Of a DNA stretch of 64,000 nt, positions 3,900 through 53,411 are shown one piece after another. The stretch spans positions 1 through 64,000 of the forward strand of contig JBMOPW010000026.1 in assembly GCA_049322915.1 (NCBI GenBank), written 5' to 3'. The DNA is from Candidatus Zhuqueibacterota bacterium. Lineage in GTDB: Bacteria; Zhuqueibacterota; Zhuqueibacteria; Thermofontimicrobiales; Thermofontimicrobiaceae. The notes under the pieces are model-generated. The model made no database searches. It was not told where the DNA came from and was given only the letters and a program-made list of their open reading frames with translations. A program made the position numbers and the translations under genes. Each line of letters starts with the position of its first letter. Position 1 is the stretch's first letter.

Positions 3900-5654
3900 G
3901 TGATGATGCATTTCAGAATATACCTGTTAATCCTGCTGTTTTTGCCGGGTGCTTCGCTTCACGGACAGAGCGATTCCAGCCGGGTGCGCTTTGGATCAGT
4001 CGTCCTTTCCGGCTGTCAGCGCATTTCGCGGGCCGAGATTGCAGCGATGCTCCCGCCCGGAGATTATTCCCCGGCGCAGATGCAGCAGGCAATGGCAAAG
4101 GTGCTCGAGAATTACCGGCAGCGCGGGTTTTATAAAACGCGCCTGTCTGTCAGCCATGAAGCGGACCGACTGATCGCGGCTGTGCACGAAGGACCGCAGA
4201 TGATTCTCGGCGACATTGTGCTGGCCGGATTGGATTCGGTTGGCCATCAGTGGCTTTCGTCGCAATTGGACTTCCGTGGCCGGGCGTATGCCAGCGACGC
4301 CATGAATTCTAACATGGATCGGATGCTCCAGCTTCTGGAAAATAACGGCTATCCGTTCGCAACGATCACATTGGATAGCCTGGCCCTGTCGTCGGGAAAC
4401 GATTCGCTGCGCGAACGAGTCACCAGCTATGCCCGTGTGGATCGCGGTCCGCGCGTGACCATCGATTCCCTGATTATTCATGGGAACGAAATGACCCGCT
4501 CCAACGTGATTTTCCGGGAATCCCGCCTGAAGAAAGGGCAACTCTACGACCAGCGGCAGGTGTCCCGACTGCCAACCCGATTGAATAAAACCGGCTTCTT
4601 CAGCAGCGTGGAAGAGCCGCAACTCTATCTCGATGATTACGGCCGGGGCCAACTGTTCGTTCGCGTGAAGGAGGGTAATCCCAATCAACTGAACGCTGTG
4701 TTCGGGTACAATCCAAAAACAACTCCGAACTCCCGGGGATACATCACCGGATTGATCGACATTGCGTTCAGGAATCTGCTGGGCACCGGCAGGGTGATGG
4801 AAGCGTACTGGCGAAAAAAAGATCGGCGAAGTCAGGAGCTTCGGTTTCGGTACGTTGAGCCGTGGATTCGAGGCTGGCCGGTGCATGTCGGCGCCGGATT
4901 CCAGCAGGTCATTCAGGATACAACGTTCATTCGGCGCACCATGTCCCTGGATGTGGAGGCGCCTTACTCGGACGTATTGACGATTTTCTCCAATGTTGGC
5001 CGGGAGCAGATCTTGCCGGATTCCATGGGGCGCGTGCTGTACCAGTTGCCGGAGAGCCATTCCTGGCAGGCGAATATCGGCTTCAGCTACGATACACGCG
5101 ACGCCATTGGCAATCCCTCGCGCGGGGTTCTTTACAAAACAGTGTTCGAATACGCCCGGAAAAGCATTGTGGAGGATCCTGAAATGCCGCTTTCCCCGGG
5201 AGAAAAAACCAATTTCCGCCGGGACCGCTGGATGGTTGATCTGGAAATTTATGTGCCCACGCTGAAATATCAGACGATCCTGTTCGCACTGCACGGCCGG
5301 CATGTGAAATCGGCCGAACCGCTCATTCCGATTTCCGATCTGTTCCGGGTTGGCGGAGCGAATTCGCTTCGCGGATTTCGGGAGGATGAATTCTTTGGGG
5401 ACAAAATTGTCTGGCTCAATCTGGAATATCGCTATTTGCTGGCGGCGCGTTCCCGCGCGTTTGCCTTTTTCGATAGCGGTTATTTCAATCGAACCGACGC
5501 GAGCGAGACGATTATCAGGGATTACAAATTTGGATACGGTATGGGCGTGAGAATTGAAACGCGGCTGGGCATCATCGGAATCGACTACGGCCTGAGCCAG
5601 GGGCGCGGGCTCACGAGCGGCCTGGTGCACATTGGCCTCACGAACCAGTTCTGA
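3900..5654 (+). CDS. Omp85 (BamA/TamA) family outer-membrane protein with about 3 POTRA domains
   Basis: 584 aa; signal peptide; POTRA-like repeats (YRQRGFY, LENNGYPFA, IHGNEMTRSNVI); NLLGTGR barrel start; loop-6 LRGF motif; terminal Phe. Confidence 0.88.
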   Translation: MMMHFRIYLLILLFLPGASLHGQSDSSRVRFGSVVLSGCQRISRAEIAAMLPPGDYSPAQMQQAMAKVLENYRQRGFYKTRLSVSHEADRLIAAVHEGPQMILGDIVLAGLDSVGHQWLSSQLDFRGRAYASDAMNSNMDRMLQLLENNGYPFATITLDSLALSSGNDSLRERVTSYARVDRGPRVTIDSLIIHGNEMTRSNVIFRESRLKKGQLYDQRQVSRLPTRLNKTGFFSSVEEPQLYLDDYGRGQLFVRVKEGNPNQLNAVFGYNPKTTPNSRGYITGLIDIAFRNLLGTGRVMEAYWRKKDRRSQELRFRYVEPWIRGWPVHVGAGFQQVIQDTTFIRRTMSLDVEAPYSDVLTIFSNVGREQILPDSMGRVLYQLPESHSWQANIGFSYDTRDAIGNPSRGVLYKTVFEYARKSIVEDPEMPLSPGEKTNFRRDRWMVDLEIYVPTLKYQTILFALHGRHVKSAEPLIPISDLFRVGGANSLRGFREDEFFGDKIVWLNLEYRYLLAARSRAFAFFDSGYFNRTDASETIIRDYKFGYGMGVRIETRLGIIGIDYGLSQGRGLTSGLVHIGLTNQF

Positions 5655-5765: not shown

Positions 5766-8126
5766 TCATTTCCCTGGATTTTGCAGAAAGCTGGCCAGCT
5801 CTTTTTTGATCTCTGATAAGTTATTGTACCGATCGGCAACGGATTTTGCCACCATTTTCGAAACAATGTCGTCCAACTGTTTGGGCAATTCGTTGTTCAG
5901 CGACGAGACAGGCGCCGGCACGGTATTGCGGACTAATTTGAAGACGTCGTTCCGAGTTGCCGCGTCAAAGGGATTGTGTTCGGTGAGCAGTTCATAAAGG
6001 ATAACGCCCATCGAATAAATATCGGATTGCGCTGTTGCCGGCAGATTTTCCAATTTTTCCGGCGCAAAATAGGCGAGCGATTTGATGTGCGATTTGCTAT
6101 AGGATTCCGGCAGCACAAAGAAATGCTGAATTTGAAAATCAGTGATTTTTACGTCGCTGCCATTGGTGATAAAAATATTATTGGGTTCCAGCTTCCCGTG
6201 GTAAATATTTTTCTGGTGAATGGCTTCCAGCGTCTCCATGATATTGAGACAAATTCTCAGTGAGCGCTGCCAGTTAATTTTATTGTTGATGGCTTTGGGC
6301 GTCGACAGAACTGACCCTTCCACGTACTCTCTTGCTAGAAAATAAAAATCCTCCGCTTTTCCAACGTCGTAAATCATGGCAATGTTGGGATGATGAAGTT
6401 TGCCCAGCAATCGGGTTTCCGTCATGAACAGGTCTCCCGTAGAAATATTGCTGTCCGTGATGATAAAATCAGGGCGCAAAATTTTCAAAACGACCAGACG
6501 CTCCAGGCTTGTGTCCATGGCGCGGAAACTGGTGAATACGCCGTTGGGTTGCAGCTCTTTGAGAATTTTGAAACGCCCGATGCTTTTGACATCCCCGCGC
6601 TGAATTTTCGAAAGGTTGTCGTTCCAATGGACCTGGAATATCGGCGCCGGCTCGGGGGTCAGCGGATGGAATAGCCTGTTTTCCACGGGGATGATGGAGT
6701 ACGGATAGATTTTTTTCAGCAATTTCTCGACCGGCGCTGTGATGAAAAGCTGGTAATCGCCGGAGACCGACCCTTCTTTTGGTTCCAGCAGGAGTTTTTT
6801 CTCGAATTCAAACCCGGATAATAACATCTGCAATTCATGGAGCAGGGTCATTTCCTCTTCGGATTTTGAGGCCGACAATTTGTGAACAAGAATTTGAAAT
6901 TTGGTGGGCGCTTCGGCGTTGCCGTTTCGTCGCGTTGAAATTCCCTGGAGGAAATGGATCACGTTATCCACGGATTTTTTGATGTCGTGGGTGAAAATAA
7001 GGCTTCCATCCTTCATGGCAGCGCCCAAAAGGAAGTCGGACTGACGGTCGTAATCCCGGGTGAGCGCCTCACGCAACTGATTTTGATAGCTGGAGAAAGC
7101 CTGGCCCTCGCCGTGAACCATGACCACTGCTTTGGCCTTTTTCAGAATTTGGCGGACATGGCTCTTTTCGAACGCTGACGCCTCGCTCACCGGACCTTCG
7201 CTCCCATTCACATTAAGCCAGAGATTGAGTTTGCACCAGAGATCGGAATGAAATAGATCGCGGTTCGTGCCGGCGGCCTTGTTCTGAATATTCAATCCCC
7301 GTTCCCAAATATTGGAAAAAGAATCTTCGGCCAAAAATAATTCGAATTCCTCGATGGATTGAGAATCCTTTTTCTTATTCTTCTCGATGGCTTTTTGGGA
7401 CAGAATATTTTCAGTGAAAATATACAGGTACAAATCGAAAAGCCGTTGAAAAATTTCGAAATTGGAGAAGTACTGTCGGTAATGGGTCAGTTCAGTATTG
7501 GAAATCTGCGAGCCGCCAGTCTCGTGCAGCAACCGGTGCATGTAGTTGCTGATTAACCAGGGGTAATACTCCCTGTTTTGGGTGCGCTCGATGAGCAGTT
7601 GAAAGAAGTTCGAGACGGCATCGAAAGCGTCATTTTTCCATTCAAGTTTCACGTAGCGCGGCAGAATGCCGGCCAGCGCATCCTCGTACGGAATCAACTG
7701 CGTCAAGTACTCCCTCACCGCGGCGATATCGTTTTTTTGTATGTGGATATGGATCAGCCGGGTGAGGATCACACTGGAGTTCGGCGGATTGTGCTGCAAC
7801 GCGTTTTTGAAAACCTGACAGGCCAGCGCGTCCTCTTTGTTCATGTTCAAATAAATTTGGCTCAGCACCACATTCAGCACGGGATTGGCGGGCTCATATT
7901 TCAAAGCCGCTTCAAAGACATTCAACGCTTCCTGGTCGAATTGTTCTTTTAGAATATATGCCTTGCTTAATGTCAAAAAAATCTTTGCATTCAGTTCCCC
8001 CAACTGAATTAATTTTTTAAATTTGTCAATCGCATTATCGTAATCCCCTTTTTCCAGATAGGTCGTCCCTAACTGATACAGGAGGTCGATAACCCGTTGA
8101 TCATCATTTTGCTTTGGTTTTTCCAT
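5766..8126 (-). CDS. TPR protein with central degenerate nucleotide-cyclase-like region and C-terminal Ser/Thr pseudokinase domain
   Basis: 786 aa; N-terminal TPRs; kinase fold (VVLK, HPNIA, APE, SDIYSMG) but HRD replaced by HGK, DFG by DFQ, Gly loop degraded; no TM segment. Confidence 0.85.
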   Translation of the reverse strand: MEKPKQNDDQRVIDLLYQLGTTYLEKGDYDNAIDKFKKLIQLGELNAKIFLTLSKAYILKEQFDQEALNVFEAALKYEPANPVLNVVLSQIYLNMNKEDALACQVFKNALQHNPPNSSVILTRLIHIHIQKNDIAAVREYLTQLIPYEDALAGILPRYVKLEWKNDAFDAVSNFFQLLIERTQNREYYPWLISNYMHRLLHETGGSQISNTELTHYRQYFSNFEIFQRLFDLYLYIFTENILSQKAIEKNKKKDSQSIEEFELFLAEDSFSNIWERGLNIQNKAAGTNRDLFHSDLWCKLNLWLNVNGSEGPVSEASAFEKSHVRQILKKAKAVVMVHGEGQAFSSYQNQLREALTRDYDRQSDFLLGAAMKDGSLIFTHDIKKSVDNVIHFLQGISTRRNGNAEAPTKFQILVHKLSASKSEEEMTLLHELQMLLSGFEFEKKLLLEPKEGSVSGDYQLFITAPVEKLLKKIYPYSIIPVENRLFHPLTPEPAPIFQVHWNDNLSKIQRGDVKSIGRFKILKELQPNGVFTSFRAMDTSLERLVVLKILRPDFIITDSNISTGDLFMTETRLLGKLHHPNIAMIYDVGKAEDFYFLAREYVEGSVLSTPKAINNKINWQRSLRICLNIMETLEAIHQKNIYHGKLEPNNIFITNGSDVKITDFQIQHFFVLPESYSKSHIKSLAYFAPEKLENLPATAQSDIYSMGVILYELLTEHNPFDAATRNDVFKLVRNTVPAPVSSLNNELPKQLDDIVSKMVAKSVADRYNNLSEIKKELASFLQNPGK

Positions 8127-8146
8127 AGTGTCTGAACAGTCTTTTT

Positions 8147-9958
8147 CTAATGTCCCATTCTGTCTAATTCATCTTTGAGCGATCCACTCAAAAGGCTTTT
8201 CGGATTCTGTGTATGTTTCGATTTTTCCAGATAATATTTGGTGACAATGGGTTCCAGCCGAAATTTTAAATCATCATTGTAGAGAATGGCTTTTTCAAAA
8301 ACACTCACAGCAACCGAATCGATTCGGTTTTCGTTGATGTAAATATTGGCCAATGTGATGTAGAGCTTCACATTGTTTGGCTTTTTTGAAAGCAGATTTT
8401 CATAAATTTCGCGCGCTTTGTCGTATCGTTTTTGAAGCAGGAAGTATCTCGCCCGGGTGACCGGCGAGAAAAACAGGATGCCGGCTGCTGGCAGAATGAG
8501 GATGCCGGCAAGAAACGCCAGAAACATCATGGTTGACATTTGGGTATTGGATGGCGCTGACCCATCATTTTCGGTAACCTGGCCGCCCATATTCAAATGG
8601 CTTTTTGCCTGATTCAGGAGAAACTCGGTGTCCTTGTAATCCGGAATGATCAGGCGGATCTTTTCCATGACAATGGTCGCCTGAAGCCAATCGCGTTTCT
8701 GCATCAGCTCCAGCGCTTCCTGGTAGAAGTTCTGCACCAGTTGGGAATCGATGGCTGCGTTCATCCGCTGCGAGCGCTTTTTAAAGAATTGATCGATCTC
8801 CGGTGAGGGACGAATTTGCTGTTTGGTAGCATTCGATCCTTCGCCCGTGGAGTAATGAGCGAAGCTGTCGTCAACCAATTCGTTGCTCGATGTCTTCAGT
8901 TTGTTGATTTCATTCCGCAGCCGGGATATCTGCGCTGCAACGTCTTTGTAATTGGCGCTTTGGGCGTTCACCTGTTCGAACGTTGTCAGCGCGATCGTGT
9001 AATTCCCGTTTTTATATTGCTCCGTTCCTTTGATATACAAATTTTCCAACTGCTGGTCCGAGAGAAGTTGCGCGTATTGTTTCTCTTTGGCCTCGACTAT
9101 CAGTCGGTCGACTTCAGGGTAATCTGCCTGCCGCTTTTTAATGTTTTCAAAGTACTGTATGGCGCTTTTCAAATCACCTGTATTCATATAGGCCTTGGCC
9201 TGGTCGAACAGGATTTGTATTTCCGCCTTATCGGACAGACGGTTCTGTTCGATGGCCTGATTGATCTTGTCTAGTTGCGATTTGGCGGCCTGATGATTCG
9301 GATTCAATTCTATGACGCGCGAAAAGCGTTCCGCAGCATGCACCAGATCATTTTTCGCCGAGGCGTCCAGACCTTGCTGGTACAACTCGTAAATGGCCTT
9401 GTGATTTTGTGCAATCTGAATCCCTGTTTCAAATGTGGCGCGGTCCTCAGGGGATTCTCTCTTGCCCTGTTCGAAGAACGCAATGGCCTGGTCAAATTGA
9501 TTTTGCGCAATTTTTGTCTGGCCCAGTTCGTACAAAATCAGCGCCTGGAGTTTTTTCTCCTGAGTGATATTGAGCGCGGCCTGAAATGATTGCTCGGATT
9601 CCTCATAACGTCCCATGTTCCGGTATAACGAACCCAATCGTTTTAAAATCGTCCCTTTGAGCGAAGTCTTCAACTCCGAAGGATTGACCATAATTGCCTT
9701 CTTAAAAGCATCTTCAGCTTTTTGGTACTCCTTGAGGTTGATGTAAACAAGGGCAAGGTTGTAGAACGCCTCAATGAAGTTGGGCTTTTCCTGAATTGCT
9801 TTGAGATAATGCTCCACTTTCTTGTTGAGGTTCTGTTCGTCCACACCTTTGTTGAACCAGTAGTTCGCTCCCATGTCTTGTGAAAAAACAGGAGTCTGAT
9901 TGGCACTGACAAACCAACAGAACAACAGCGTCGAGAATAGCAGCAATGTCTTTTTCAT
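8147..9958 (-). CDS. Single-pass membrane TPR protein
   Basis: 603 aa; signal peptide; many TPR-like repeats; TM helix MMFLAFLAGILILPAAGILFF; short C-terminal TPR region. Confidence 0.85.
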   Translation of the reverse strand: MKKTLLLFSTLLFCWFVSANQTPVFSQDMGANYWFNKGVDEQNLNKKVEHYLKAIQEKPNFIEAFYNLALVYINLKEYQKAEDAFKKAIMVNPSELKTSLKGTILKRLGSLYRNMGRYEESEQSFQAALNITQEKKLQALILYELGQTKIAQNQFDQAIAFFEQGKRESPEDRATFETGIQIAQNHKAIYELYQQGLDASAKNDLVHAAERFSRVIELNPNHQAAKSQLDKINQAIEQNRLSDKAEIQILFDQAKAYMNTGDLKSAIQYFENIKKRQADYPEVDRLIVEAKEKQYAQLLSDQQLENLYIKGTEQYKNGNYTIALTTFEQVNAQSANYKDVAAQISRLRNEINKLKTSSNELVDDSFAHYSTGEGSNATKQQIRPSPEIDQFFKKRSQRMNAAIDSQLVQNFYQEALELMQKRDWLQATIVMEKIRLIIPDYKDTEFLLNQAKSHLNMGGQVTENDGSAPSNTQMSTMMFLAFLAGILILPAAGILFFSPVTRARYFLLQKRYDKAREIYENLLSKKPNNVKLYITLANIYINENRIDSVAVSVFEKAILYNDDLKFRLEPIVTKYYLEKSKHTQNPKSLLSGSLKDELDRMGH

Positions 9959-10183
9959 GCACGCCCCCTTTATCCCTTAGGTTAGCAATTAATGTGACCT
10001 CTATGTCGTTTATTCCTGGGCAGTATTTCCGCGATTCGATCAGGTCGCTGGAAAAAAGAATGATGTTGTTTTTCACAGTTGAATTGCCCACAGCAATGGG
10101 TATTCAAAAAAATAATACATTCTTCAAACGCAATATGCGTAATTTTAACGAATTGAAATCAATGAACGGGCAAATGCACCGGG

Positions 10184-11662
10184 CTATCTGCTGAATTGAA
10201 TGGTCTTTATGTCACCGGACGCGATCTCGATGGAACTGCGATTGAAAATCACCTGGTCTGATGAGTCGCGAATGGTGATCGTATATTTGCCCGGTGGAAG
10301 CTGCAAACCGGAATTTCGAAAGAGAACAGTTTTTCCCCAGAATTTATTATTGATGAACAGCGCGGAATTTTCTACATTTTTTGATTTTTCAAATCCGGCC
10401 AGATAGATCACTCCCCGATTTTTTAAAGTTGCGTTCAGGGTCTTGGCATGTGTGCGATTCCCTGAACTGGAATTCGGGCCAGGCTGAATCGAATTCGAGA
10501 CTAATTTATTGAGAACCGAGTCAGGTATCGACACGATCGCGGCTTCTTTTTTGAGTGTATCGGTTTCTTTCGCGCCGGGTGTCTCCAATGGAGGTTGCTC
10601 ATCCATCGGAGTGGAATTCGCATACACATCGTTGCTGATGACGCCGGAACTGCTCTCTGAACGCATATTTCGTAACCTGGCGAGGGCGAAAATTAGAATG
10701 ACCGCCAGCACGATCACCAGGAGGCTGAACAGAAATGTCCGCGAGGAAATGAGCCGTGAGACTCTTTTGGGCGAGTTGAGCGCGCCTGGCGGCGTGTTCA
10801 TCTCCTGCTTCAGTATTTGATCCTCGATCCGGCCGATGGACTCAGCCTCGGCTTTCAGCACAACCTTTACCGGCGTGAATGATTTTTCAGGTTGCGCGCT
10901 GTCGTCGATTTTGACCAGAGCCACAGTGACGTTGTCTGAGCCGTCTTTGATATTGGCGGTATCGATGAGATGCGTCAGCGTGTTTTCCATGTTGCCGTTA
11001 TTGAAAAACACGATGGATTTTATCTCGTCGTTGGATATAGCTTTTGTGAGCCCGTCGGTGCAGAGCAAGTATGTATCGCCGGGAACGAGTGGGCCGATGA
11101 ACAAGTCGATTTTATTCGTTGGCGCTTGACCCAGAGCGCGGGTGATGACATTCTGTTTGATAAAGTTCTTGGCTTCGTCGGCGTTAATTTCTTGATCCTG
11201 AATCAGTTCATTGACCCACGTGTGATCTTCGGTGATTTGCTCCATCACCCCCTGACTGAATCGGTAAACGCGGCTGTCCCCGACATGGGCAATGATCACT
11301 CGGTCCCCCTGAATCGAGAGAGCGGAAACCGTTGTCCCCATGCCTCTCAGATTTTGATTGTGAATGGATTTATTGTAAATATTCCGATTGGCGAGCCGAA
11401 TAGAACCGATGATCCGCGAAGCAATCTGCAAGTTCATTTCTGCAAGATCTTTAGATATCTTTTGATGTATGGCAAGATCGAGAAACAAATACATGTAGCG
11501 AATGGTGGAAACTGCCAGGCGACTGGCCTGCTCTCCACCTTTGTGTCCGCCCATACCGTCACACACAATGGCAAGCTTATTTTCTTCAAATACCCCGCTG
11601 TAATCTTCATTGATAGGCCTGACAACTCCAACATCACTTTTAGCCATCATTTTAATTGTCAT
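10184..11662 (-). CDS. Membrane-anchored PP2C (Stp1/IreP-type) Ser/Thr phosphatase
   Basis: Motifs SDVG..R..NED, CDGMGGH, GMGTT, HVGDSR, LCTDGL, DNVT; TM helix; C-terminal PEGA-like segment (LPPGKYTITI). Confidence 0.93.
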   Translation of the reverse strand: MTIKMMAKSDVGVVRPINEDYSGVFEENKLAIVCDGMGGHKGGEQASRLAVSTIRYMYLFLDLAIHQKISKDLAEMNLQIASRIIGSIRLANRNIYNKSIHNQNLRGMGTTVSALSIQGDRVIIAHVGDSRVYRFSQGVMEQITEDHTWVNELIQDQEINADEAKNFIKQNVITRALGQAPTNKIDLFIGPLVPGDTYLLCTDGLTKAISNDEIKSIVFFNNGNMENTLTHLIDTANIKDGSDNVTVALVKIDDSAQPEKSFTPVKVVLKAEAESIGRIEDQILKQEMNTPPGALNSPKRVSRLISSRTFLFSLLVIVLAVILIFALARLRNMRSESSSGVISNDVYANSTPMDEQPPLETPGAKETDTLKKEAAIVSIPDSVLNKLVSNSIQPGPNSSSGNRTHAKTLNATLKNRGVIYLAGFEKSKNVENSALFINNKFWGKTVLFRNSGLQLPPGKYTITIRDSSDQVIFNRSSIEIASGDIKTIQFSR

Positions 11663-12190
11663 AACATCCCCAAATTTGAACGCGCTCGAATTCCTTTTCC
11701 AGAGTCAGATGTTGATTGAGTTAAGTGAAAGAAGTTTCCATCTTGTTTTCAGGTATCGGTTTGCTGGCGCTCCCAGATTTGCTGCGCCGTAATGTCCTTC
11801 TTCGTGAAGGCATTCTTTGGTTCAATTCTCTGTAGTCGTTTGCCTGAGACGAACGGTTTTGCGATTTCAAATGGTTGACAGGAAAATGATTGTCATTGTT
11901 CCTCCCGGCCAATCATCCAGTCGTGCGTCCGCTTCATCGGAGTTATTCATCGTTCGTACTACTTTTTGAAGAGTCATTCATCGTTAGCATCATTGAAGGC
12001 AGGAAAATGTTCGCCCATTTATTTTCGCTGGTATTGCGAGTGAATCATAATGACAGGATTTGCGTTAAACGTCCTTTGCATTTTGGCCAGAAAGTAACTT
12101 GATATTCAATTCGACTAAAAGGGCAATGAGATGTGTTCATTGCCCTTATTTTTGTAAAGCGTGATGAACGATTGGCCGAACAATTCAATG

Positions 12191-14617
12191 TCAGATTGAA
12201 AAAAGGCGCTTTCGTTTCAGCGGCTGCAACACCAGGGTGATGCCGAAGAAAAGGATCATTGCCAGCGATAGCACAATCGCCAGATAATAGCTGCTCTTCG
12301 AGACTGAGGCAGAGGCGATACAACCGGATTGCTCGGGGTTGAAATTCACTTGTCCCCAGATGACAGAGCTTTCCTGAACTTTACTGTTCGTTGAAACCAG
12401 GGTAAATTCCTCGGAATTTTTCCGGAGCAGAATATCGATGCTATTATTTTTATTGAAATCAGCTACTATCGGCGTGGCGATTATTTCGCTCGTGATCTGT
12501 CCCATATTCGCTTCATTCATCAGCTTACCGGTGGATCCATCGAAAATGTACAGCCCGTGATAAAATCCAGCCAGGAGAATATCGACATTGTCGTCTTTAT
12601 TGACATCTGCCAGAACCGGTTGGGAGATGAACTGCTCAACATTTTGAGGAATGTAGCCCCAGTTGATCTTTTTCTGGCCGCTTCCTTTTCCCTTGCCATC
12701 ATAGACAATCACTTTATTGTCATTGGTCACCACCGCAACATCGAGGAAATTGTTGCCGTCAAAATCGCCCATGACCGGCGCGGCAAAGGACCCCATTTCC
12801 GGATCAGCCTGAAATTCATCGAACCACAATCGCTTGAATTGCTTGCCATCCAGGGTCAGAATGTGATTCCGTTCCGTCGTGATGGCCAGGTCCGCGCAGT
12901 TGTCCTGATTCAAATCGCCCACTGCAATGCGTTGGCGAATGGGCTGCTCTTCGAAAAATGAGCCTTTTGCTTTTTGGAATTCTTCATTGATATTCAGTAT
13001 TTTCGAAATGCTGTTGGACTCGCCGTCGTACACGTACATCAGACCACCTTCCGTGCCGAACACAACTTCAGGCAGGCCATCGCCATCGAGGTCACCGGCA
13101 GAGGGTGCGCATCGAATTTCATTCTCAGTCTCAATCACAGACCATTCCGGGTAGGTGAATGTGCCCAGACCCAGATGGAGTTTTCCATTCTGATTGCAGA
13201 TGAAAATGTCCTTGATATTATCGCCGTTCAAATCGGTGACGATCGGGTTGCCCGCAAATACCCCGCCCAGTAGAGGACTGGCCCAGATCTCGGTGCCGGA
13301 TTGTCCATCCACCGCGTAGACGATGGAGTTGTTGGACGGGATCAAAATATCCATCAGGTTGTTATTGTTCAAATCGGCGACGACGATTCCAACGGGCAAT
13401 TGCACCTGGTACAACGAAGAAATCTGCCAGAGTGGTTTGGACGTTTTTCCGTCGAACGCTTTCAAATACCCGATTTTATCCAGGTAAACGATATCCATGA
13501 AACCGTCGCCGTTGAAGTCAGCCGCAGCCGGCGCCAGGCTGGGAATAATGCTCATCACTTCCGTAGGTTGCAGCGTGAGGCCTTCCAAATCCGGGCTGGC
13601 GATGAATGTCGTCTCGTTCAGCGCGAGCGCGCCAGGTTTTTGATTGATGATACCCAGGCTGCGCCAGTTATTGAAAAGAATCAGGGCAAAGATGAGGATG
13701 GCTGCAACCGAAGCCAGGTTACGCACCCATGATCCATTTCGTACCCACCAGATGCCTGCTCTCCGGGGAGCGGCGTAATCCATTTTTGTCTCCGGTGTGA
13801 GCCGGAAAATGGTGCTCCTCTGGTCGCTGACAATTTCAATTTCATCTCCGGGAAATAGCTGCACCGTGTCGTCTTCGTTCAGTTGCCGTTGATTGACGCG
13901 GGTTCGGGTTTTGCTTCGCTTGTCCGTGATGAAGAAATTGCCGGCTTCGAGAGAGATCGTGGCGTGTCTGCGGGAGATGCTCGGATCGATCTGGCCTTTG
14001 CTGTTCTCCCGAATGACGATGTCATTCAGCGATGTATCTCTTCCGATTCGGGTGATGCCAAAATTTAAACGATATTTTTTCCCGGTGTACGGCCCGTAGA
14101 TCGCAACGAGGTAATGCGGGATCAGGTCGCTCCTGATCGGCTCTGCCGCGATTTTCTCGCCATCTTCCAGTAACTGGGCGCTGAGACCTTCCGCAATATC
14201 CACTTCAGTTTCAATGTCCGGGCTGGCAGCCGATGATTCAGGAAGCGCGTCGGCATAGGTCCGCTCCCCAACAGCCGCCGGCTTCTCTGGAAATTTCTCC
14301 GATTTGATGCTTTTGTCAAACAGAATATTTTCGAAGATGAGCGAGTGCTCGCCAATATGGATTTCATCGCCACTGGCTAACAGCGTTCGCTCAATAACTT
14401 TTTCGCCATTCAGCAATGTCCCGAAGGCGCTGTTATTATCCTGGACAAAATAATTCGTGCCTTCTTTTTCAATGGCTAAATGATGCATGGACACTCGTTT
14501 GTCCGCAATAATCAGATCGTTGTCCCCCTCTGACCCAATTGTGATCTTATTCTGGAAAGGTCGAATCGGAAATTCCTTATAGACTTCGGCTTTCCTTTTG
14601 ACAACGATTTTTGGCAT
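12191..14617 (-). CDS. Double FHA-domain membrane protein with FG-GAP/VCBS beta-propeller
   Basis: 808 aa; two FHA-like domains (IGS..VSMHH; IGRD..ISRRH); TM; about 8 D(F/L/V)(N/D)xDxxxD repeats; second TM at C-terminus. Confidence 0.9.
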   Translation of the reverse strand: MPKIVVKRKAEVYKEFPIRPFQNKITIGSEGDNDLIIADKRVSMHHLAIEKEGTNYFVQDNNSAFGTLLNGEKVIERTLLASGDEIHIGEHSLIFENILFDKSIKSEKFPEKPAAVGERTYADALPESSAASPDIETEVDIAEGLSAQLLEDGEKIAAEPIRSDLIPHYLVAIYGPYTGKKYRLNFGITRIGRDTSLNDIVIRENSKGQIDPSISRRHATISLEAGNFFITDKRSKTRTRVNQRQLNEDDTVQLFPGDEIEIVSDQRSTIFRLTPETKMDYAAPRRAGIWWVRNGSWVRNLASVAAILIFALILFNNWRSLGIINQKPGALALNETTFIASPDLEGLTLQPTEVMSIIPSLAPAAADFNGDGFMDIVYLDKIGYLKAFDGKTSKPLWQISSLYQVQLPVGIVVADLNNNNLMDILIPSNNSIVYAVDGQSGTEIWASPLLGGVFAGNPIVTDLNGDNIKDIFICNQNGKLHLGLGTFTYPEWSVIETENEIRCAPSAGDLDGDGLPEVVFGTEGGLMYVYDGESNSISKILNINEEFQKAKGSFFEEQPIRQRIAVGDLNQDNCADLAITTERNHILTLDGKQFKRLWFDEFQADPEMGSFAAPVMGDFDGNNFLDVAVVTNDNKVIVYDGKGKGSGQKKINWGYIPQNVEQFISQPVLADVNKDDNVDILLAGFYHGLYIFDGSTGKLMNEANMGQITSEIIATPIVADFNKNNSIDILLRKNSEEFTLVSTNSKVQESSVIWGQVNFNPEQSGCIASASVSKSSYYLAIVLSLAMILFFGITLVLQPLKRKRLFSI

Positions 14618-14816
14618 TTTTTATCCTTCCATTAACTTCATTACGCTAAAGCAATTAGTGTTTTAGTCTGACATCGTTGGTCCCACTCTATTCGAACCAT
14701 GACGTCCTTCATCATTGCGAGTGGCCCAATTTTTCGAACATGGACTCATTTGAACCTGACACATTTCAACCGATTGTCTGTTCGATTCTCTTCATGCGCC
14801 TCGATGCAGCAACTTG

Positions 14817-17762
14817 TTATTGAATGATCAGTTTGAAATCCAGAGAGTGTTCCCCATTTTTGGTATTCAGAATTGCATATTTTTCAAAATAGCCTGCCTT
14901 CTTCACCCTGAAGCTGAATTCCCCGGGAGACATTTTATTTATAATCGAACCGGTTTCATCGGTTTTGCCAAACAGCACTTCAGACGCTTTACTTTCTGTC
15001 AGCGAGCGAAACAGGAGTTCGGCGTCCTTCAGAGGCAGGCCGGTCAATGCGTCGGTGACTTTGATTTTCACATCAATGGCTGAAGGCTCCATGGCAACCA
15101 GCACATCGCTATCATCCATGGAAACTCCGACCACCGCGTCTTTGTAGCCTTCGCGGCTGAGTACTACTTTCAGATTCACAGGCGGCAAGGCAATGTCGCA
15201 TGGAGTTTTATCGTTGCGCGTATACACCACGTCATTGCGGATGATTTTTATGATTCTGGCGCCGATTTCATTGTTCTCCGGATCATTTTTATCCTTGGCA
15301 TAGAACCGCACATTTCGCGTTAACATAACCGAGATGGTCTCCGGCCCGCTATTATCCACTTTGATATTCATCTGCCTGGAGTTGAATCCCTTTTTCTGAA
15401 ATAGAATGGAATGCTGACCGGTGCTCAAGGCAATCACTGACGACACATCGGTTCGGCCCGACGGGCTGGTTGCTCCGTCGATGAAAAATGTTATGCCGGG
15501 AGGAACAGAGGCAATGTTGATGAATTTTTTGAAATTGCCCTGAATGACAAAACGTTTGTTGTCGCCCTGGATACTTTCGAAGTCCCAGAGCCGGCGGTCT
15601 TCGACCTCCTCCAGACCATCCACTGTATTCAATGAAAAACCACTCAATTTCTGGAATCCATCCATTTCCATTTCAATGGCCAATGGTTCGCCTACTTCCC
15701 ATTCAACCATTGTGGGCGTGCGATGGGGGAATTTGATTTGATTCAAATGAACCACAGCGCCAGAGGGCTCTGAGTTCAATTCAATTTGCGTCTTGAATCG
15801 GAATAAATAGGGGCTGTAGCCTTTGCGCGCAGTCTCCCCGCTGACTTTTACTTCGCCCTTGCTCGGCACGTGAATGGATTTTACAAGCGGAGCAAAGCCA
15901 TCATGCGTCAACGTCAATTCATGAACGCCCGGGGCAATTTTTGGAATGGACAACGGCGTTTCTCCCGGAATCCTTTCCTTATCCAGATAAACAATCGCAC
16001 CCAGTGGGGCTGAAGTTATTTTTATAGCTGGTGGAAATAGTCGGTTGAAAACAGCCTCACCGAGACTTGTCATTTGTAGAAAAATATCGAACAGCATAAA
16101 GACAAACAATGCGGCGAGCACTGAAATAGCTGAAATTGTGATCGCTTTTTTATGCGTCCGCGTGGAGAGCCGAATCACGTCGATGACAGTTTTTAAATCG
16201 TCTTCCCCGACTTCATCTTCGTGAGTCGGTTTGGGCGTCAGTTTTGAATGCTTTGGTTCCGGTTCAACCGGGGAAAATTTAGCATTGAATTTCTGATGGA
16301 TGATTCTTTCTGTATCGCTCAGATCGACTTCGGAGTTGCCATTTTCAGGGATTTCCTCCGCAATGGAGAGGAACTCTTCTGAGACCGTTTCTTTCCCGTC
16401 TTTGCGGTTTGCCCCATCAAAATCAGATGGCGTTTCCTCGTTCCTGGCTATGGTATCAATTTCAGGCGTCTCTTCGGTCTGAGGCTGCGGAGCGCTATTG
16501 TAAATGCCAACCTGATCGACAGGCGAAAATTGCGGTTGACGATCCCTGTGCAGGCGTTCGAATTCCGGGACAGAGGTTCTTTCCTCAACTGTTTGCGTGA
16601 CGTCCTCGCTGTAATTGGCGGAGGCAGTCTTCAATTCGTTAATGTCAGCAATCGGAACTTCGGAGAACGGCTCCGCTGTGAAATCGCTGGTGACATCTGA
16701 TTTCCCGTTGTCATCCTGCTCGTGTATCAATTTATCCAGTTCTTCGGAGAGCTGTCTGATTTGCTGATCCGTTTCCTGGTTATCATCGCGAGCCGGGGCT
16801 TCTGTGGCGGCAGCGTCGTTGTTGCTATCGGAAAAAAGACGCTGGACGAATCCACCTAATTCATCGGAAAGCTCCACCGAATAGGTCGATGACATGAGAT
16901 ATTCCACCAGGTCAAGATACACGCCATTGGCGCCATGATAGCGATCGTCAGGATTTTTCTGCAACATCTTAACGAGAATTTTTTGAACCGGCTCAGGCAC
17001 ATTGTGTTGTTCCAGGCGATCGGTATCGATGCGCAGTTTTTTGAAATTTTCGAGGATCTGCTCCGGGTCATCGGAAGGGAAAAGACGAGAGCCGGTCAAT
17101 ATCTCATAAAATGTAACACCGAGTGAAAAGATATCCGTGCGTCGGTCGACATGCCCATTGGTCAGACTCAATTGTTCCGGCGCCATGTACGGGAGCTTAC
17201 CGGAAATGACCAACTCGTTTGAATTTTTATTTTGAAAACGAAATTTCGCTAATCCAAAATCGATCAGTTTCACATGGCCGGAATGCGAGATCATGATGTT
17301 GGACGGGGAAATATCCTGATGGACCAGCTTAAGTGGTTTATCCGTCAGAATGTCGCGTTTGTTATGGGCATATTCAAGAGCCTTGCATATTTCTTTAATG
17401 ATGTAGATGCTCAATTCGAGCGGAATCGTGGCGTTAGCTTTTCGGCTCTGGCGGAGAATTTTAGCCAGATCCATGCCATCGACATATTCCATGACAATGT
17501 ACAATTGCCCATCTTCGGCGGTGACAAGGTTGTAAATATGGACGATGTTATTGTGGCTAAGTTTTGCGGCATTCTTAGCTTCGGCCATGAATAAATCCAC
17601 CCACTTTGCCTCTTTGAGCAGGCTGGGTTCGATGGCCTTAATGGCGACAGATTTCTCGAAGACATGGTCGTAACCATAATAAACAATCCCAAATCCCCCT
17701 TGTTTAATTTTCGAGACGATCTCATATTTGTTCTGTATAAGTCGGCTCTCTGTTTTCTCCAT
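14817..17762 (-). CDS. Membrane Ser/Thr protein kinase with PEGA repeats
   Basis: GGFGIVY, VAIK, HQDISPSN, DFG, YMAPE motifs; acidic linker; TM; PEGA repeats (ITSAPLGA, LNSEPSGA, IASVPPGI); start set at ATG 17762 after an AGAGG RBS (ORF track extends to 17924). Confidence 0.93.
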   Translation of the reverse strand: MEKTESRLIQNKYEIVSKIKQGGFGIVYYGYDHVFEKSVAIKAIEPSLLKEAKWVDLFMAEAKNAAKLSHNNIVHIYNLVTAEDGQLYIVMEYVDGMDLAKILRQSRKANATIPLELSIYIIKEICKALEYAHNKRDILTDKPLKLVHQDISPSNIMISHSGHVKLIDFGLAKFRFQNKNSNELVISGKLPYMAPEQLSLTNGHVDRRTDIFSLGVTFYEILTGSRLFPSDDPEQILENFKKLRIDTDRLEQHNVPEPVQKILVKMLQKNPDDRYHGANGVYLDLVEYLMSSTYSVELSDELGGFVQRLFSDSNNDAAATEAPARDDNQETDQQIRQLSEELDKLIHEQDDNGKSDVTSDFTAEPFSEVPIADINELKTASANYSEDVTQTVEERTSVPEFERLHRDRQPQFSPVDQVGIYNSAPQPQTEETPEIDTIARNEETPSDFDGANRKDGKETVSEEFLSIAEEIPENGNSEVDLSDTERIIHQKFNAKFSPVEPEPKHSKLTPKPTHEDEVGEDDLKTVIDVIRLSTRTHKKAITISAISVLAALFVFMLFDIFLQMTSLGEAVFNRLFPPAIKITSAPLGAIVYLDKERIPGETPLSIPKIAPGVHELTLTHDGFAPLVKSIHVPSKGEVKVSGETARKGYSPYLFRFKTQIELNSEPSGAVVHLNQIKFPHRTPTMVEWEVGEPLAIEMEMDGFQKLSGFSLNTVDGLEEVEDRRLWDFESIQGDNKRFVIQGNFKKFINIASVPPGITFFIDGATSPSGRTDVSSVIALSTGQHSILFQKKGFNSRQMNIKVDNSGPETISVMLTRNVRFYAKDKNDPENNEIGARIIKIIRNDVVYTRNDKTPCDIALPPVNLKVVLSREGYKDAVVGVSMDDSDVLVAMEPSAIDVKIKVTDALTGLPLKDAELLFRSLTESKASEVLFGKTDETGSIINKMSPGEFSFRVKKAGYFEKYAILNTKNGEHSLDFKLIIQ

Positions 17763-17997
17763 AATTTTTCCTCTGCTTAGAGATGGTGACCTGCGATAGT
17801 AAATAGTTGAATCAATCCGCGGCTCATGTATCGACTCGAAATCAGATCGCTCAGCAGAGTCCCTGATAGCGATGCCTTGTGCCGCATGGTTCAGCGTGTA
17901 ATGAACAGATTCTCGAAACAACAACCGAAGGCAATTGAATTATATGCTTATTAATTAGTAGATTAGTTATCGAAATCAATCATACGGGTCGTTTTTA

Positions 17998-18013
17998 CGC
18001 AAATACTATGCCA
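17998..18013 (-). promoter_or_regulatory. Sigma-54 (-24/-12) promoter of the kinase cassette
   Basis: Minus strand reads TGGCATAGTATTTGCG (GG-N10-GC), about 235 nt upstream of the kinase start in an AT-rich spacer. Confidence 0.7.
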
Positions 18014-18465
18014 TGTAGGAACTTGCATTTTTCAAAGGGATACTTCTCAAATTTTATTCAAGTTATTTGTTTACTATTTAGTAATAGTTTGATCTCGTCC
18101 TGTTCCATGCTGAGCCAATGTTTCATGCATAAACAAAGCGTATCGATGTTTCAAAGTTCGAGTGCCTATTTCAGGCATCAATTGAACAAAGTAATAATTA
18201 TTACAGATAGTTAATACCTTCAATGGCTGGTGTCTGCCGAATAAAAAATTCTGATTTTTGTCATTTATTAGAATTTTCTTTTTTCACACTGTCTCAGAAG
18301 AGAACCAGTTTATCCTGAAAATGGTGGTTGGGGCGTAGAATCCATGCAGCGAGCCGAGAGAAAATATATTGAGAAGACGGGGAATATGTTGGCCAGGATG
18401 ATTTACCAATAATGTAAAGCTGTCCCCGGGAAGTGGCAGGTAGTCGGTTTTGTCGACAGGTGCTC

Positions 18466-18521
18466 AAAAAAATAATCCACCGGACTGGATTGTTAAATAC
18501 ACGTTGCCAGTCGGTGGATTG
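18466..18521 (-). terminator. Probable intrinsic terminator after the ECF operon
   Basis: Hairpin aatccaccgactgg / ccagtccggtggatt followed by a T run on the minus strand. Confidence 0.55.
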
Positions 18522-18656
18522 TATTTACAGAGTAAAGGCTGCCCAATATACTCATAAAGCATGAAAGGGTTGTCAATCTTTTTGGGTCAGTTTTGAAATC
18601 AGATATTTTCGATGCCTTTACAATGTTCTGAATCGAAAAAGCGTAGCGTTAACGAA

Positions 18657-20720: not shown

Positions 20721-21417
20721 GATGTTCACCTCCTTGGGACAACTGCTTGATCCGCGTTTCAGCCTGGGCTGCCCAGGAACTCCCAGGATAGATCTTAATC
20801 AAATCTTGATATGAAGTCAATGCCTCCGAACTATTTTTCAATTGATGATCCAAAATATCAGCAATGCGGAACTGGACATCATCGCATAAGTTGTTTTCAG
20901 GGTACTTTTTTATCAGCAGTTGAAATGTCGCGAGTCCCTGTGTCCAGTCGTTTTGTTTGCAATAAAGCTGGCCCAGTTTTAAATAGGCAGTGATGACCGA
21001 TTTATTGGATGAATAGAGCGTAATCAATTGCTGATAAGCAGTGATGGCCTTTTTTTCTTGCTCCAAATGGAGTTCATATATTTGTGCTAAGTTGAATAAA
21101 CCATCTCCACTTAGAGAATCCCCCGGAAAAAGAGAAATCAGATGTGTATAGTAATCCAAAGCTTTTTCATAATGTCCGAAAACTTCATTCAATTTGGCCA
21201 ATTTGAACGATGCCCGGGGTGCATTTTCGCCTTCCGGGGACTCGGCTAAAATCTGTTCCAAACCTTCGCGATACGTTTCAATGTCAGAAACACTCTTCAG
21301 AATCTTGCTTTCCATGCGTTCCAAATCTTTGAAAGAAGAATCAGCGGATTGATTATTTTGACATGACCAAATAGCCAGACTAACACAGAAAGTGACAAAG
21401 AGGATTTTCTTCTTCAT
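20710..21417 (-). CDS. TPR lipoprotein (BamD/CpoB-like repeats)
   Basis: MKKKILF...IWSC lipoprotein signal; repeats ending L(I)xx(Y/F)PxS; 3' end overlaps the start of the downstream gene. Confidence 0.82.
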   Translation of the reverse strand: MKKKILFVTFCVSLAIWSCQNNQSADSSFKDLERMESKILKSVSDIETYREGLEQILAESPEGENAPRASFKLAKLNEVFGHYEKALDYYTHLISLFPGDSLSGDGLFNLAQIYELHLEQEKKAITAYQQLITLYSSNKSVITAYLKLGQLYCKQNDWTQGLATFQLLIKKYPENNLCDDVQFRIADILDHQLKNSSEALTSYQDLIKIYPGSSWAAQAETRIKQLSQGGEHHEN

Positions 21418-21743
21418 AAGTCGCCTCATAATTTTTTGAGTGAAATTAAAATTAGCCGCGGCGATGAATTGATTTAATAAAATGGTATCATACCTTAATA
21501 GTAGCTGTTCACAGCTTCCGGGTTCACCCAGTGAAATAATACTAAATAACACAACAATTCGGTTGTTATATGATTTAAAGCGCTAGACATAAATTATTTT
21601 AAAATTGAAAATATTTCACGGGGTGAAGCGGTCCCGGTTGGATATAGTCGCGCGAAACATTTTTTATGTTTAAATAGTCCGTCAATAACTGTACGTTATC
21701 ATTAACCTTGAATCCTGAACGATGAACCTGTGAACGGTTATCC

Positions 21744-22244: not shown

Positions 22245-22289
22245 GCGGATTTCCTCCGTTGATTTTGATGTCAAAATTTTCGATGAAGT

Positions 22290-52197: not shown

Positions 52198-52213
52198 TGG
52201 CATTAAAATTGCA
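52198..52213 (+). promoter_or_regulatory. Sigma-54 (-24/-12) promoter of the FecR/CHASE2 operon
   Basis: TGGCATTAAAATTGCA (GG-N10-GC), 67 nt upstream of ATG 52281, within an 860-nt spacer. Confidence 0.75.
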
Positions 52214-53387: not shown

Positions 53388-53411
53388 GTTGAAAACAGGA
53401 GCGCCCGAAAT

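Follow-up and report, generated by a model that had tools for sequence, protein, structure and literature searches.

A putative membrane Ser/Thr phospho-signalling cassette co-conserved in the Zhuqueibacterota (KSB1) phylum

Modules that combine a Hanks-type Ser/Thr kinase, a PP2C phosphatase and an FHA-domain protein are known mainly from the Actinobacteria, the Firmicutes and the type VI secretion systems (T6SS). What appears to be a differently built version of such a module is encoded in an uncultured phylum of the FCB group, on the minus strand of a 64,000-nucleotide (nt) stretch of a Candidatus Zhuqueibacterota genome (GenBank assembly GCA_049322915.1, contig JBMOPW010000026.1, positions 1 to 64,000), which is referred to below as the window. 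Five large open reading frames (ORFs), found from the ORF list and Pfam, are arranged there head to tail between positions 5766 and 17924. In transcription order, they encode a receptor kinase (K1), a double-FHA protein with an FG-GAP beta-propeller, a PP2C phosphatase, a membrane TPR protein and a protein, psK, that joins TPR repeats to a cyclase fold and a pseudokinase. These genes form a real, co-conserved cassette; that it is an operon-like membrane Ser/Thr phospho-signalling module, is driven by sigma-54 and works by the mechanism proposed below is given a probability of about 0.6. The features of the cassette, all on the minus strand, are as follows.

18462 to 18524, minus strand: intrinsic terminator of the upstream ECF-sigma (extracytoplasmic function sigma factor) operon, taken as the upstream boundary of the cassette (sequence and folding)
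17998 to 18013, minus strand: sigma-54-type -24/-12 element TGGCATAGTATTTGCG, TGGCAT-N5-TTGCG (pattern scan and relatives)
14817 to 17762, minus strand (ORF 14817 to 17924): K1, Hanks-type Ser/Thr kinase (Pfam, hydropathy)
16179 to 16190, minus strand: codons of the juxtamembrane T525-V-I-D528, 12 residues ahead of the transmembrane segment (TM) of K1 (alignment)
12191 to 14617, minus strand: double-FHA membrane protein with, in order, FHA1, a variable linker, FHA2, a TM, the FG-GAP region and a TM (Pfam, hydropathy)
12119 to 12147, minus strand: stable hairpin with a weak U tract, 44 nt past the FHA stop codon (pattern scan and folding)
10184 to 11662, minus strand: membrane PP2C of the Stp1/IreP type (Pfam, NCBIfam, hydropathy)
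8147 to 9958, minus strand: membrane TPR protein (Pfam, hydropathy)
5766 to 8126, minus strand: psK (Pfam TPR and Pkinase, AF2 (AlphaFold2) model, alignment)

The sigma-54-like element and all five genes had been proposed in an initial annotation of this DNA, and Pfam and the pattern scan recover every one of them where it had been placed. The gap sizes of 200–530 nt given there agree with the long gaps as measured (199, 528 and 225 nt in transcription order); the last gap, in front of psK, is 20 nt. The idea that writer, reader and eraser all span the membrane is likewise borne out by the hydropathy of K1, the FHA protein and the PP2C, and of their orthologues. Two features had been overlooked, namely the cyclase-fold domain of psK (residues 295–505) and the stable hairpin after the FHA gene (12119–12147).

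The T6SS resembles the cassette in combining genes for a membrane Hanks kinase with a periplasmic domain (PpkA), a PP2C eraser (PppA) and an FHA reader (Fha1, or TagH); the FHA domain is reported to bind a membrane component that bears a phospho-Thr (PMC3953482). Moreover, the kinase domain of PpkA (5hnv) matches the kinase fold of psK with a Z of 22.9. The cassette differs in that its FHA protein has two TMs and an FG-GAP propeller, in that it has an extra TPR/pseudo-cyclase/pseudokinase protein and in that its kinase is non-RD. Pfam detected no T6SS core family in the window or around the 21 loci whose flanks were scanned, and the TagH model scored 48.6 against a cut-off of 120.25.

The actinobacterial circuit of PknB, PstP, FhaA-FhaB and MviN has the same kinds of parts: a receptor kinase, a membrane PP2C, FHA proteins and a pseudokinase. 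In those sections of a 2025 review of bacterial pseudokinase families on which we draw (PMC12599244), the pseudokinase tail of MviN is phosphorylated by PknB, which recruits FhaA; neither TPR repeats nor cyclases are mentioned in those sections. The likeness extends to the proteins themselves: the PP2C of the cassette passes the cut-off of the Stp1/IreP model (Stp1_PP2C_phos, NF033484; 236.6 bits against 230), and the kinase fold of psK is nearest to PknB chains 4eqm_A and 1mru_A (Z 28.6, root-mean-square deviation (rmsd) 2.8, 262 aligned residues). In contrast to MviN, the pseudokinase of the cassette is soluble and is fused to TPR repeats and a cyclase fold instead of a flippase, and both the gene order and the phylum are different. 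No PASTA, FtsW/RodA, transpeptidase or penicillin-binding protein (PBP), or MurJ/MviN family was found by Pfam in the window or in the loci scanned, and the PknB_PASTA_kin model covers only the kinase domain of K1 (235.5 against a cut-off of 450).

The mycobacterial protein Rv1747 and its kinase PknF resemble the K1–FHA pair in that a membrane protein begins with FHA-linker-FHA and the kinase gene is adjacent, as the part of the source used here states (PMC3138270). The membrane part of the cassette protein is a propeller between two TMs and not an ABC transporter; the linker of the cassette protein shows no TxxD/TxxI enrichment, and its FHA1 lacks the phosphate-binding Arg. Multivalent linker phosphosites of the Rv1747 kind were considered and found no support, with TxxD, TxxE and Txx[ILV] unenriched in the K1 and inter-FHA linkers alike (z -1.9 to +1.5).

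EssB, the pseudokinase of type VIIb secretion systems, is itself anchored in the membrane, and these systems are not known to include an active kinase or a PP2C. They resemble the cassette in setting a double-FHA membrane protein (EssC) alongside a pseudokinase (EssB, or YukC; compare PMC9600267); the cassette lacks the FtsK-type ATPase and WXG genes. Another comparison is offered by a Deinococcus operon of a vWA protein, a Ser/Thr protein kinase (STPK), an FHA protein and a PP2C (bioRxiv 10.64898/2026.01.23.701218), in which kinase, FHA protein and phosphatase are again encoded together. In the part of that preprint consulted, the operon differs by its vWA protein and its soluble FHA protein, and no propeller, TPR protein, pseudokinase or sigma-54 element is reported.

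The cassette would seem, from its sequences, to work like the known kinase/PP2C/FHA circuits but to belong to none of them. A literature search, KSB1 included, returned no description of an FHA/FG-GAP/PP2C/kinase/pseudokinase cassette, and FHA, phosphatase, sigma and signal go unmentioned in those parts of the main text of the phylum-naming paper that were seen (PMC11683472, supplements outside). The initial annotation had not recognised the system as described, which agrees with the search results for this cassette, but the module type is well known. What is unusual is that the kinase, the FHA reader and the phosphatase all appear to be membrane proteins with outside domains, that the FHA reader carries an integrin-like propeller and that the putative scaffold joins a dead cyclase to a pseudokinase.

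The evidence for a unit comes from its conservation. With the FHA protein as query, full-length relatives at 32–70% identity turned up among 41 related genomes, and in all 20 of the regions fetched the kinase gene precedes the FHA gene and the PP2C gene follows it. A contig scan that took one genome from each of 185,579 species, with an FHA alignment, gave 75 loci; the scan used two FHA2-specific peptide patterns and misses distant analogues that lack these motifs. The co-conservation that had been claimed, with a synteny search as its check, is confirmed by these 75 loci: the gene order recurs at FHA-protein identities of 31–70%, with short gaps in the relatives, and reads kinase, double-FHA/FG-GAP protein, PP2C, zero to four membrane TPR genes and psK. 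Most of the corresponding records carry the name candidate division KSB1, Zhuqueibacter or Coneutiohabitans, and outside KSB1-type records the FHA2-pattern scan gave only isolated FHA-domain matches (L115–L119). As far as detected, the cassette seems confined to one class of the KSB1/Zhuqueibacterota phylum. Within the phylum, a match at E 1e-60 or better was obtained in 69 of 167 species genomes, a tally that takes in two unpublished genomes (G158 and G162). By family, there were matches in f1 (10/13), f2 (5/5), f3 (2/2), f6 (21/21), f8 (10/10), f10 (17/19) and f12 (1/1), and almost none with the FHA-protein query in f4, f5, f7, f9, f14 and f21.

The kinase gene lies directly 5' of the FHA gene in 65 of the 66 loci with enough upstream DNA, the sole departure being L104, where three genes intervene. 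By tblastn, the kinase ends no more than 1.5 kb from the FHA gene in 61 of the 66 loci that have at least 1.5 kb upstream; in the exceptions L054, L060, L065 and L088, a single kinase ORF with a diverged ectodomain extends as far as the FHA gene. The gene after the FHA gene is PP2C in 48 of the 60 loci with at least 2 kb downstream. Where at least 9 kb downstream is available (40 loci), psK is found in 37, PP2C in 35 and at least one membrane TPR gene in 23; the commonest architectures are PP2C, one TPR gene and psK (15 loci), PP2C and psK (15), TPR gene and psK without PP2C (4), and PP2C, two TPR genes and psK (3). The three loci without a scored psK are L060, with no cassette genes past the FHA gene, L104, and L091, which has four TPR genes and the visible N-terminus of a psK at the edge of the locus. 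It follows from these counts that the conserved core is the kinase, the FHA protein and psK, with PP2C usual and the TPR gene optional or multiplied. The term "five-gene" used in the initial annotation hence does not hold for the conserved unit, in which the membrane TPR gene occurs in zero to four copies and from which PP2C has gone in one paralogous clade.

The sigma-54 promoter consensus is TGGCAC-N5-TTGC. The element TGGCATAGTATTTGCG sits 251 nt 5' of the K1 start codon and has one mismatch to the search pattern; it lies upstream of a gene and its GG and GC are spaced by ten bases in a context of the TGGCAC-N5-TTGC type, as expected of a sigma-54-dependent promoter. Among the relatives, 20 of 61 loci have a perfect TGGCA[CT]-N5-TTGC at most 450 nt ahead of the kinase, and 5 further loci match 9 of the 10 positions within that distance. 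In 1220 random 450-nt windows taken as controls from the same loci, the perfect score is reached in 0.7% and the 9-of-10 score in 1.3%. The enrichment over these controls is about 47-fold, and the distance is fixed: the element is mostly 94–146 nt 5' of the kinase start, in flanking sequence that is unconserved on both sides. The sigma-54 motif that had been claimed is thus kept in about one third of the loci. It is counted as a real promoter feature because it is conserved in relatives, not because of its count in the window, and as such it probably belongs to a large subset of the family, the window locus included. The window's genome contains rpoN (C34:287886-288362) and 40 strong matches to PF00158, the family of sigma-54 activators; none of these activator genes was found by Pfam inside the window. 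An FHA-fused sigma-54 activator as a feedback route was considered and rejected: the five FHA domains of the genome lie in four proteins (163–809 residues), none of which is at an activator locus.

Short gaps between the genes are the rule in relatives. Between kinase and FHA genes, the median is 35 nt (50 nt or less in 35 of 57 loci); between TPR and psK genes, it is 6 nt (50 nt or less in 19 of 24), and several of these pairs overlap by 4. The gaps of the window itself are at the long end of this range. Upstream, the terminator at 18462–18524 has a stem of 14 pairs and then UUAUUUUUUU (-21.6 kcal/mol, z -4.7). Within the cassette, the hairpin at 12119–12147 has a folding energy of -16.1 kcal/mol (z -4.7), which none of 200 shuffles equals; it possibly attenuates or terminates transcription between FHA and PP2C, and partial termination after the FHA gene is possible in the window's genome. 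Rfam gave no match at E 0.1 or better between positions 5000 and 19000.

The start of K1 is likely the ATG at 17762, because relatives align from that Met. The protein consists, in order, of a cytoplasmic kinase domain (Pkinase, PF00069, 165.5 bits against a cut-off of 31.7), a disordered acidic linker, the juxtamembrane motif, one TM (540–558) and an ectodomain with three PEGA stretches and a CarboxypepD_reg-like domain (Pfam). The GGFG of the Gly-rich loop, VAIK, HxD, DFG and APE are retained in all 62 aligned kinase domains, and K1 is judged from these motifs to be an active Hanks-type Ser/Thr kinase. In 61 sequences, HxD has Q (53), K (5) or L (3) in the middle and never the Arg of RD kinases, and no column of the activation segment has 30% or more S/T; K1 is therefore classed as non-RD. 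In RD kinases, phosphorylation of the activation loop acts as a switch. This is unlikely to be the switch of a non-RD K1. The linker of K1 is variable, and the last 20 residues before the TM are conserved, with a [DE]-rich run and then [KR]-T-[VI]-I-D-x-x-R-[LIV]-S. In particular, T525, I527 and D528 are invariant, and T-[VI]-I-D is present in all 61 K1 sequences. A phospho-Thr followed at the third position by Asp (pT-x-x-D) is a classical FHA ligand, and T525-x-I-D is a candidate docking site of this kind, i.e., a ligand for FHA2. That a kinase should depend on such a site is plausible since, according to the part used of a preprint on PrkC, a juxtamembrane phosphosite is needed for activation of that kinase (10.1101/2025.11.01.686061).

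The FHA protein contains two stretches that match PF00498, and its TMs, at about 297–318 and 779–797, lie on either side of the FG-GAP region; 65 of 66 orthologues have two TM-like segments. The propeller flanked by these TMs is predicted to be extracytoplasmic. FHA2 lies about 25 residues ahead of the TM, and all 67 sequences share its phosphopeptide-binding residues G192, R193, S215, H218 and N242, so that it has the residues of an FHA family member and appears to be a canonical phospho-Thr-binding domain. FHA1 retains the fold and other residues (S43 in 58, H46 in 63 and N70 in 67 of 67); at the position of the Arg in the Gly-Arg pair, it has S (52), A (6), C (4), T (2) or R (3), which means that the phosphate-binding Arg has been lost in 64 of 67 sequences.

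Structure prediction for a periplasmic pair had been asked for in the initial annotation. The K1 ectodomain (560–981) and the propeller (320–778) pass as a pair with a score of 0.52, as compared to 0.00 for the best of three controls; the runs agree in at least 87% of contacts, and the partners have a predicted local distance difference test (pLDDT) score of at least 85. In the calibration, 116 of 157 solved complexes passed, as did 2 of 215 mismatched pairs; the passes at scores of 0.60 or less comprised 18 of the 157 solved complexes and both of these mismatches. With the strict adjacency of kinase and FHA genes as a prior, this prediction is a modest plus.

The PP2C has a cytoplasmic catalytic domain, one TM (310–328) and a 164-residue extracytoplasmic C-terminal part that has no significant Pfam family (best DUF2846, E 0.034). 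The motifs DG.GG, [STC]DG and DN.[ST] are present in 47 of 47 orthologues, the TM in 43 of 47, and the enzyme looks active. The membrane TPR protein comprises a signal-like N-terminus (judged by eye), a periplasmic TPR region of about 450 residues, a TM (479–497) and a 106-residue cytoplasmic TPR tail. This tail is homologous to the N-terminal TPR region of psK (BLASTP E 4e-10, 32% over 63 residues), which suggests that the two TPR regions stack or compete.

Without a TM by hydropathy, psK has a TPR region (1 to about 260), a cyclase fold (295–505, encoded by window positions 6612–7244) and a pseudokinase (507–786). An AF2 model of the whole protein, built on a 47-row alignment (pLDDT 84.4), shows a helical TPR region, an alpha/beta domain and a kinase fold. 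At the position of the HRD Asp, the 44 aligned sequences have N (33), R (6), K (3), G (1) or S (1) and never Asp, in agreement with the earlier pseudokinase claim. The VAIK Lys is retained in 42 of 44, the catalytic-loop Asn in 43 of 44 and the DFG Asp in 44 of 44, and psK may therefore still bind nucleotide; the Gly-rich loop is lost, a complete DFG occurs in 1 of 44, and the alignment contains no invariant Thr. The C-terminal domain is accordingly best described as a probable long-conserved pseudokinase, a kinase fold in which catalytic residues have been lost. The HER3 pseudokinase has H-x-N in place of HRD. In psK the same H-x-N is found in 33 of 44 sequences, with Lys, Asn and the DFG Asp retained.

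Since a fold search with the whole of psK was filled by kinases, the middle domain was modelled alone (pLDDT 82.3, predicted template modelling score (pTM) 0.83). Every one of the 24 best VIA matches is a nucleotidyl cyclase (Z between 8.5 and 12.8), the first being 4wp3_A with rmsd 3.2 over 152 aligned residues. With Foldseek, the best match is CyaB (E 3.0e-6), and chains of GC-A and of soluble guanylate cyclase match too; by sequence profile against the PDB, the Ma1120 cyclase was found at E 0.003. The same profile, run against 1.84 billion representatives, gave 288 proteins at E 0.001 or better, the strong ones being psK-like in length, and among 30 sampled weaker matches 20 carried Guanylate_cyc (Pfam). 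That family itself (PF00211) was found on the middle domain in only 1 of 47 members, at E 0.21. At the first metal site, after strand 1, which was placed by sequence alignment and not by superposed coordinates, the six most frequent residues are E (14), Q (12), H (5), R (5), K (4) and T (3), which account for 43 of 47 sequences and do not include Asp; at the second, Asp is present in 30 of 47. The domain thus has the fold of class III cyclases and neither the PF00211 match nor the metal-binding Asp pair. Model and alignment point to a dead (degenerate) class III cyclase-homology domain, in which case psK would be made of TPR, pseudo-cyclase and pseudokinase, all of them scaffold-type modules. 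The ESM Atlas gave no usable match to the middle domain, its own model being poor. Like receptor guanylyl cyclases, psK has a kinase-homology domain and a class III cyclase fold in one chain; unlike them, it is soluble and its cyclase fold precedes the pseudokinase and appears dead, and common descent is not implied. Full-length relatives of psK are rare: among 5.8 billion proteins, only 15 clusters reach a query coverage of 97% or more, and the sole name on these is 'protein kinase [candidate division KSB1 bacterium]'.

The mechanism proposed is that the ectodomains of K1 (PEGA/Ig-like) and of the FHA protein (FG-GAP propeller) would form a periplasmic sensor pair and that the non-RD K1 would phosphorylate its own juxtamembrane T525-x-I-D. 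The membrane-proximal FHA2 would then read phospho-T525, and the membrane PP2C would erase the mark. With Lys, Asn and the DFG Asp kept and HxN for HRD, psK would be a nucleotide-binding scaffold or an allosteric partner, and the membrane TPR protein, where present, would tether it to the membrane via the homologous TPR tail. What the cassette senses is most likely the cell envelope. The best lead to its output is the control of envelope machines, i.e., a type IV filament or secretion-like apparatus, polysaccharide export or outer-membrane homeostasis.

Several observations weigh against this mechanism or against single transcription of the cassette. The topology of all five proteins comes from Kyte-Doolittle hydropathy only. 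The T-x-I-D motif could alternatively be structural or form a dimerisation helix, and TxxD is not enriched in the disordered linkers (z +1.5 for K1, -1.8 for the FHA protein). The ectodomain pair passes weakly, and such scores are more often wrong than right in cases where a good prior is lacking. The window alone contains 8 one-mismatch matches to the sigma-54 pattern against 6.2 expected, which is the chance level, and 36 of 61 loci have no good element within 450 nt upstream of the kinase. Given the long gaps of the window (199–528 nt) and the hairpin after the FHA gene, the window cassette may be expressed as two or three transcripts. Finally, neither the membrane TPR gene nor PP2C is universal.

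A more ambitious version of the proposed mechanism, which we consider possible but less likely than not, is that this is a receptor architecture without earlier description. The non-RD kinase and an integrin-like propeller co-receptor would sense an envelope or outer-membrane cue, which a TonB-dependent-receptor-like barrel might pass on by way of the periplasmic TPR protein; a single invariant juxtamembrane phospho-Thr would record the state and be read by the FHA domain of the co-receptor; and a cytoplasmic, wholly non-catalytic platform (TPR, dead cyclase, HER3-like pseudokinase) would control the kinase allosterically or assemble an envelope machine. TonB-dependent-receptor-like genes occur as insertions within the cassettes of L041 and L045. 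Such genes, inside cassettes or just upstream, lie at L041 7770-10271, L045 14035-16557 and L060 1362-4655. In the window's genome, moreover, a TonB-dependent receptor gene has as its divergent neighbour the gene of a paralogue that matches the membrane TPR protein over its full length (28% identity; L120 5184-10628, G000:C28). Together these genes suggest a pairing of receptor and TPR protein and hint at an outer-membrane partner.

The relatives were grouped by a tree of the FHA protein with 67 rows, namely the window and every locus with a complete FHA ORF (9 of the 75 loci, with cut ORFs, were excluded; quick IQ-TREE, with a midpoint root for drawing only). Three well-supported groups were found. 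Clade A (49 rows, window included) is what remains once B and C are set apart, its deep branching being unresolved; PP2C is present and the neighbours vary, with PolA, aminotransferase, ribonucleotide reductase and Omp85 among them. Clade B (13 rows, one family) has no PP2C, and in 10 of the 13 a secretin gene lies about 3.5 kb upstream on the same strand. In clade C (5 rows, one family), PilC and PilB follow downstream in 4 of 5. Neighbours were scanned with Pfam on the flanks of 21 loci and with tblastn of selected neighbour proteins on all loci.

On one alternative reading, the cassette would serve to regulate a type IV filament machine (pilus or type II secretion-like) and polysaccharide export, comparable to the gating of the T6SS by PpkA, PppA and Fha1, and in the window's genome it would act in trans on an unlinked PilC, PilB and secretin. 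We consider this rather unlikely. It draws on the linkage in clades B and C just described and on single contigs, on which the order is the clade C cassette, PilC, PilB, a PilT-like ATPase, unknown genes, secretin, unknown genes, the clade B cassette and Wza-like and Wzc-like genes; Poly_export and Wzz/GNVR genes follow clade B cassettes. Two cassettes about 20–21 kb apart on one contig were found in six genomes (G023, G028, G086, G093, G096 and G098), FHA1 matches the YscD cytoplasmic-domain family of type III secretion systems (Pfam), and the window's genome, with its one cassette, does have homologues of PilC (45%), PilB (53%) and secretin (41%), unlinked, at C1:141951-152920. Against this, the clade A loci, the window included, all lacked a homologue of PilC, PilB or secretin (E 1e-15 or better with at least half of the query covered; for the window, also by Pfam). 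Clade A neighbours vary, families with a single cassette keep it apart from pilus and secretion genes, and the linkage of paralogues does not show the function of the window copy. The link to pilus and secretion is taken as the best lead to the output rather than the identity of the system. The array, together with the divergent Mla/STAS operon and its sigma-54 activator described below, makes up a supercluster of one family, the members of which include L106, L107, L109 and L111 (clade C) and L098, L102, L114 and others (clade B).

These results bear on three statements of the initial annotation. That secretion or division genes are not alongside is correct for the window and for the clade A loci examined. 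That the cassette is self-contained holds for the clade of the window but not for clades B and C, where it is set within the PilC/PilB/PilT-like/secretin array followed by Wza/Wzc-like genes. Homologous clusters that belong to a secretion system had been named as what would speak against the idea; this is the case for the paralogues and not for the window copy.

Another alternative, which seems improbable to us, is control of outer-membrane or cell-wall homeostasis in the manner of the PknB/PstP/FhaA/MviN-pseudokinase circuit, all of whose part types are present (receptor kinase, PP2C, FHA protein, pseudokinase). In that circuit, the recruitment of the FHA protein switches a step of envelope biosynthesis. 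Its genomic support is a divergent operon upstream of the cassette, with MlaE/F/D and a partner switch of STAS, RsbW and GAF-SpoIIE, at five clade A and four clade C loci. In clade C this operon encodes GAF-SpoIIE, an RsbW-like kinase, STAS, MlaE/F/D, an auxiliary lipoprotein and a receiver-type sigma-54 activator (4 loci), the activator terminating the operon in all four long clade C loci; upstream of clade A L043, L045, L048, L056 and L091, it is the same minus the activator. An Omp85 gene and a 1135-residue gene converge on psK in the window and in L063, and the TonB-dependent-receptor-like insertions of L041 and L045 point the same way. However, no RodA, PBP, MurJ/MviN or PASTA occurs in the window or the scanned loci, psK is without an invariant Thr, and neighbours differ between families, so the envelope link is circumstantial.

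A role in anti-phage defence or conflict, built on a Ser/Thr kinase, is very improbable. The kinase domains of K1 and psK do match PADLOC kinase models (mad6 1.6e-68, PD-T4-6 6.5e-65), some genomes hold two or three paralogous cassettes, and the kinase ectodomain diverges fast in some loci. Yet these matches concern the generic kinase domain only, with no family for the FHA protein and only weak ones for PP2C and TPR, and no nuclease, NTPase effector or mobile-element gene is present in the flanks scanned. In addition, the FHA tree groups loci by genome families, which suggests vertical descent and therefore counts against such a role. It is scarcely credible that the genes are mere neighbours with unrelated functions and a chance sigma-54 motif, as the chance-level count, long gaps and terminator-like hairpin of the window might be taken to mean, against an order kept in 75 loci at 31–70% FHA identity, a motif enriched about 47-fold and gaps in relatives that are short or overlapping.

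No current view is overturned by the proposed membrane phospho-signalling module. The one invariant Thr, the one canonical FHA domain and the one HER3-like pseudokinase would be sharp handles on bacterial pseudokinases and juxtamembrane phosphosites, and the paralogues that bracket pilus/secretion-like and polysaccharide-export genes indicate where the output may lie. Because the organism is uncultured, experimental work would be heterologous.

Several neighbours of the cassette may be recorded. In the window, the upstream operon (18462–22874, minus strand) encodes an ECF sigma factor (22290–22874), a zf-HC2 anti-sigma factor (21744–22274), a TPR protein (20710–21552) and a TolB-like beta-propeller lipoprotein with a C-terminal TPR (18657–20729); the TPR and propeller genes of this operon are also upstream of the cassette in L083. 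On the other side of the cassette, the genes converging on psK from the plus strand are the Omp85/BamA-like gene (3900–5654) and the 1135-residue ORF (231–3638), which has a weak SprA-like match below the cut-off; the two products of L063 are 53% and 61% identical to these. A conserved run of four to five genes lies upstream of the cassette on the minus strand in L066 (1300–6781), L069 (444–4780), L080 (1384–5049) and L095 (880–6426). No Pfam family was found in the ORFs of this run that were scanned (E 1e-4 or better), two ORFs each of L080 and L095 being outside the scan.

Further along the window (52198–62929, plus strand), a perfect sigma-54-type element, TGGCATTAAAATTGCA (52198–52213), lies 68 nt before an ORF (52281–53384) in which no Pfam family was found. 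This ORF is followed by FecR (53412–54101), an 844-residue unknown protein, a CHASE2 adenylate/guanylate cyclase (56706–58913) and a 1269-residue PKD/Big_9 protein. To judge from these genes, this is probably a second sigma-54-preceded envelope-sensing cluster. Elsewhere in the window's genome, there are two small FHA/kinase pairs (C34:478423-480172 and C16:3731-5220) and one FHA/PP2C pair (C20:353-3167), and two other Hanks kinases adjoin sigma-54 activator genes or lie within 3 kb of them (G000:C14:603538-605188 and C41:33967-37712).

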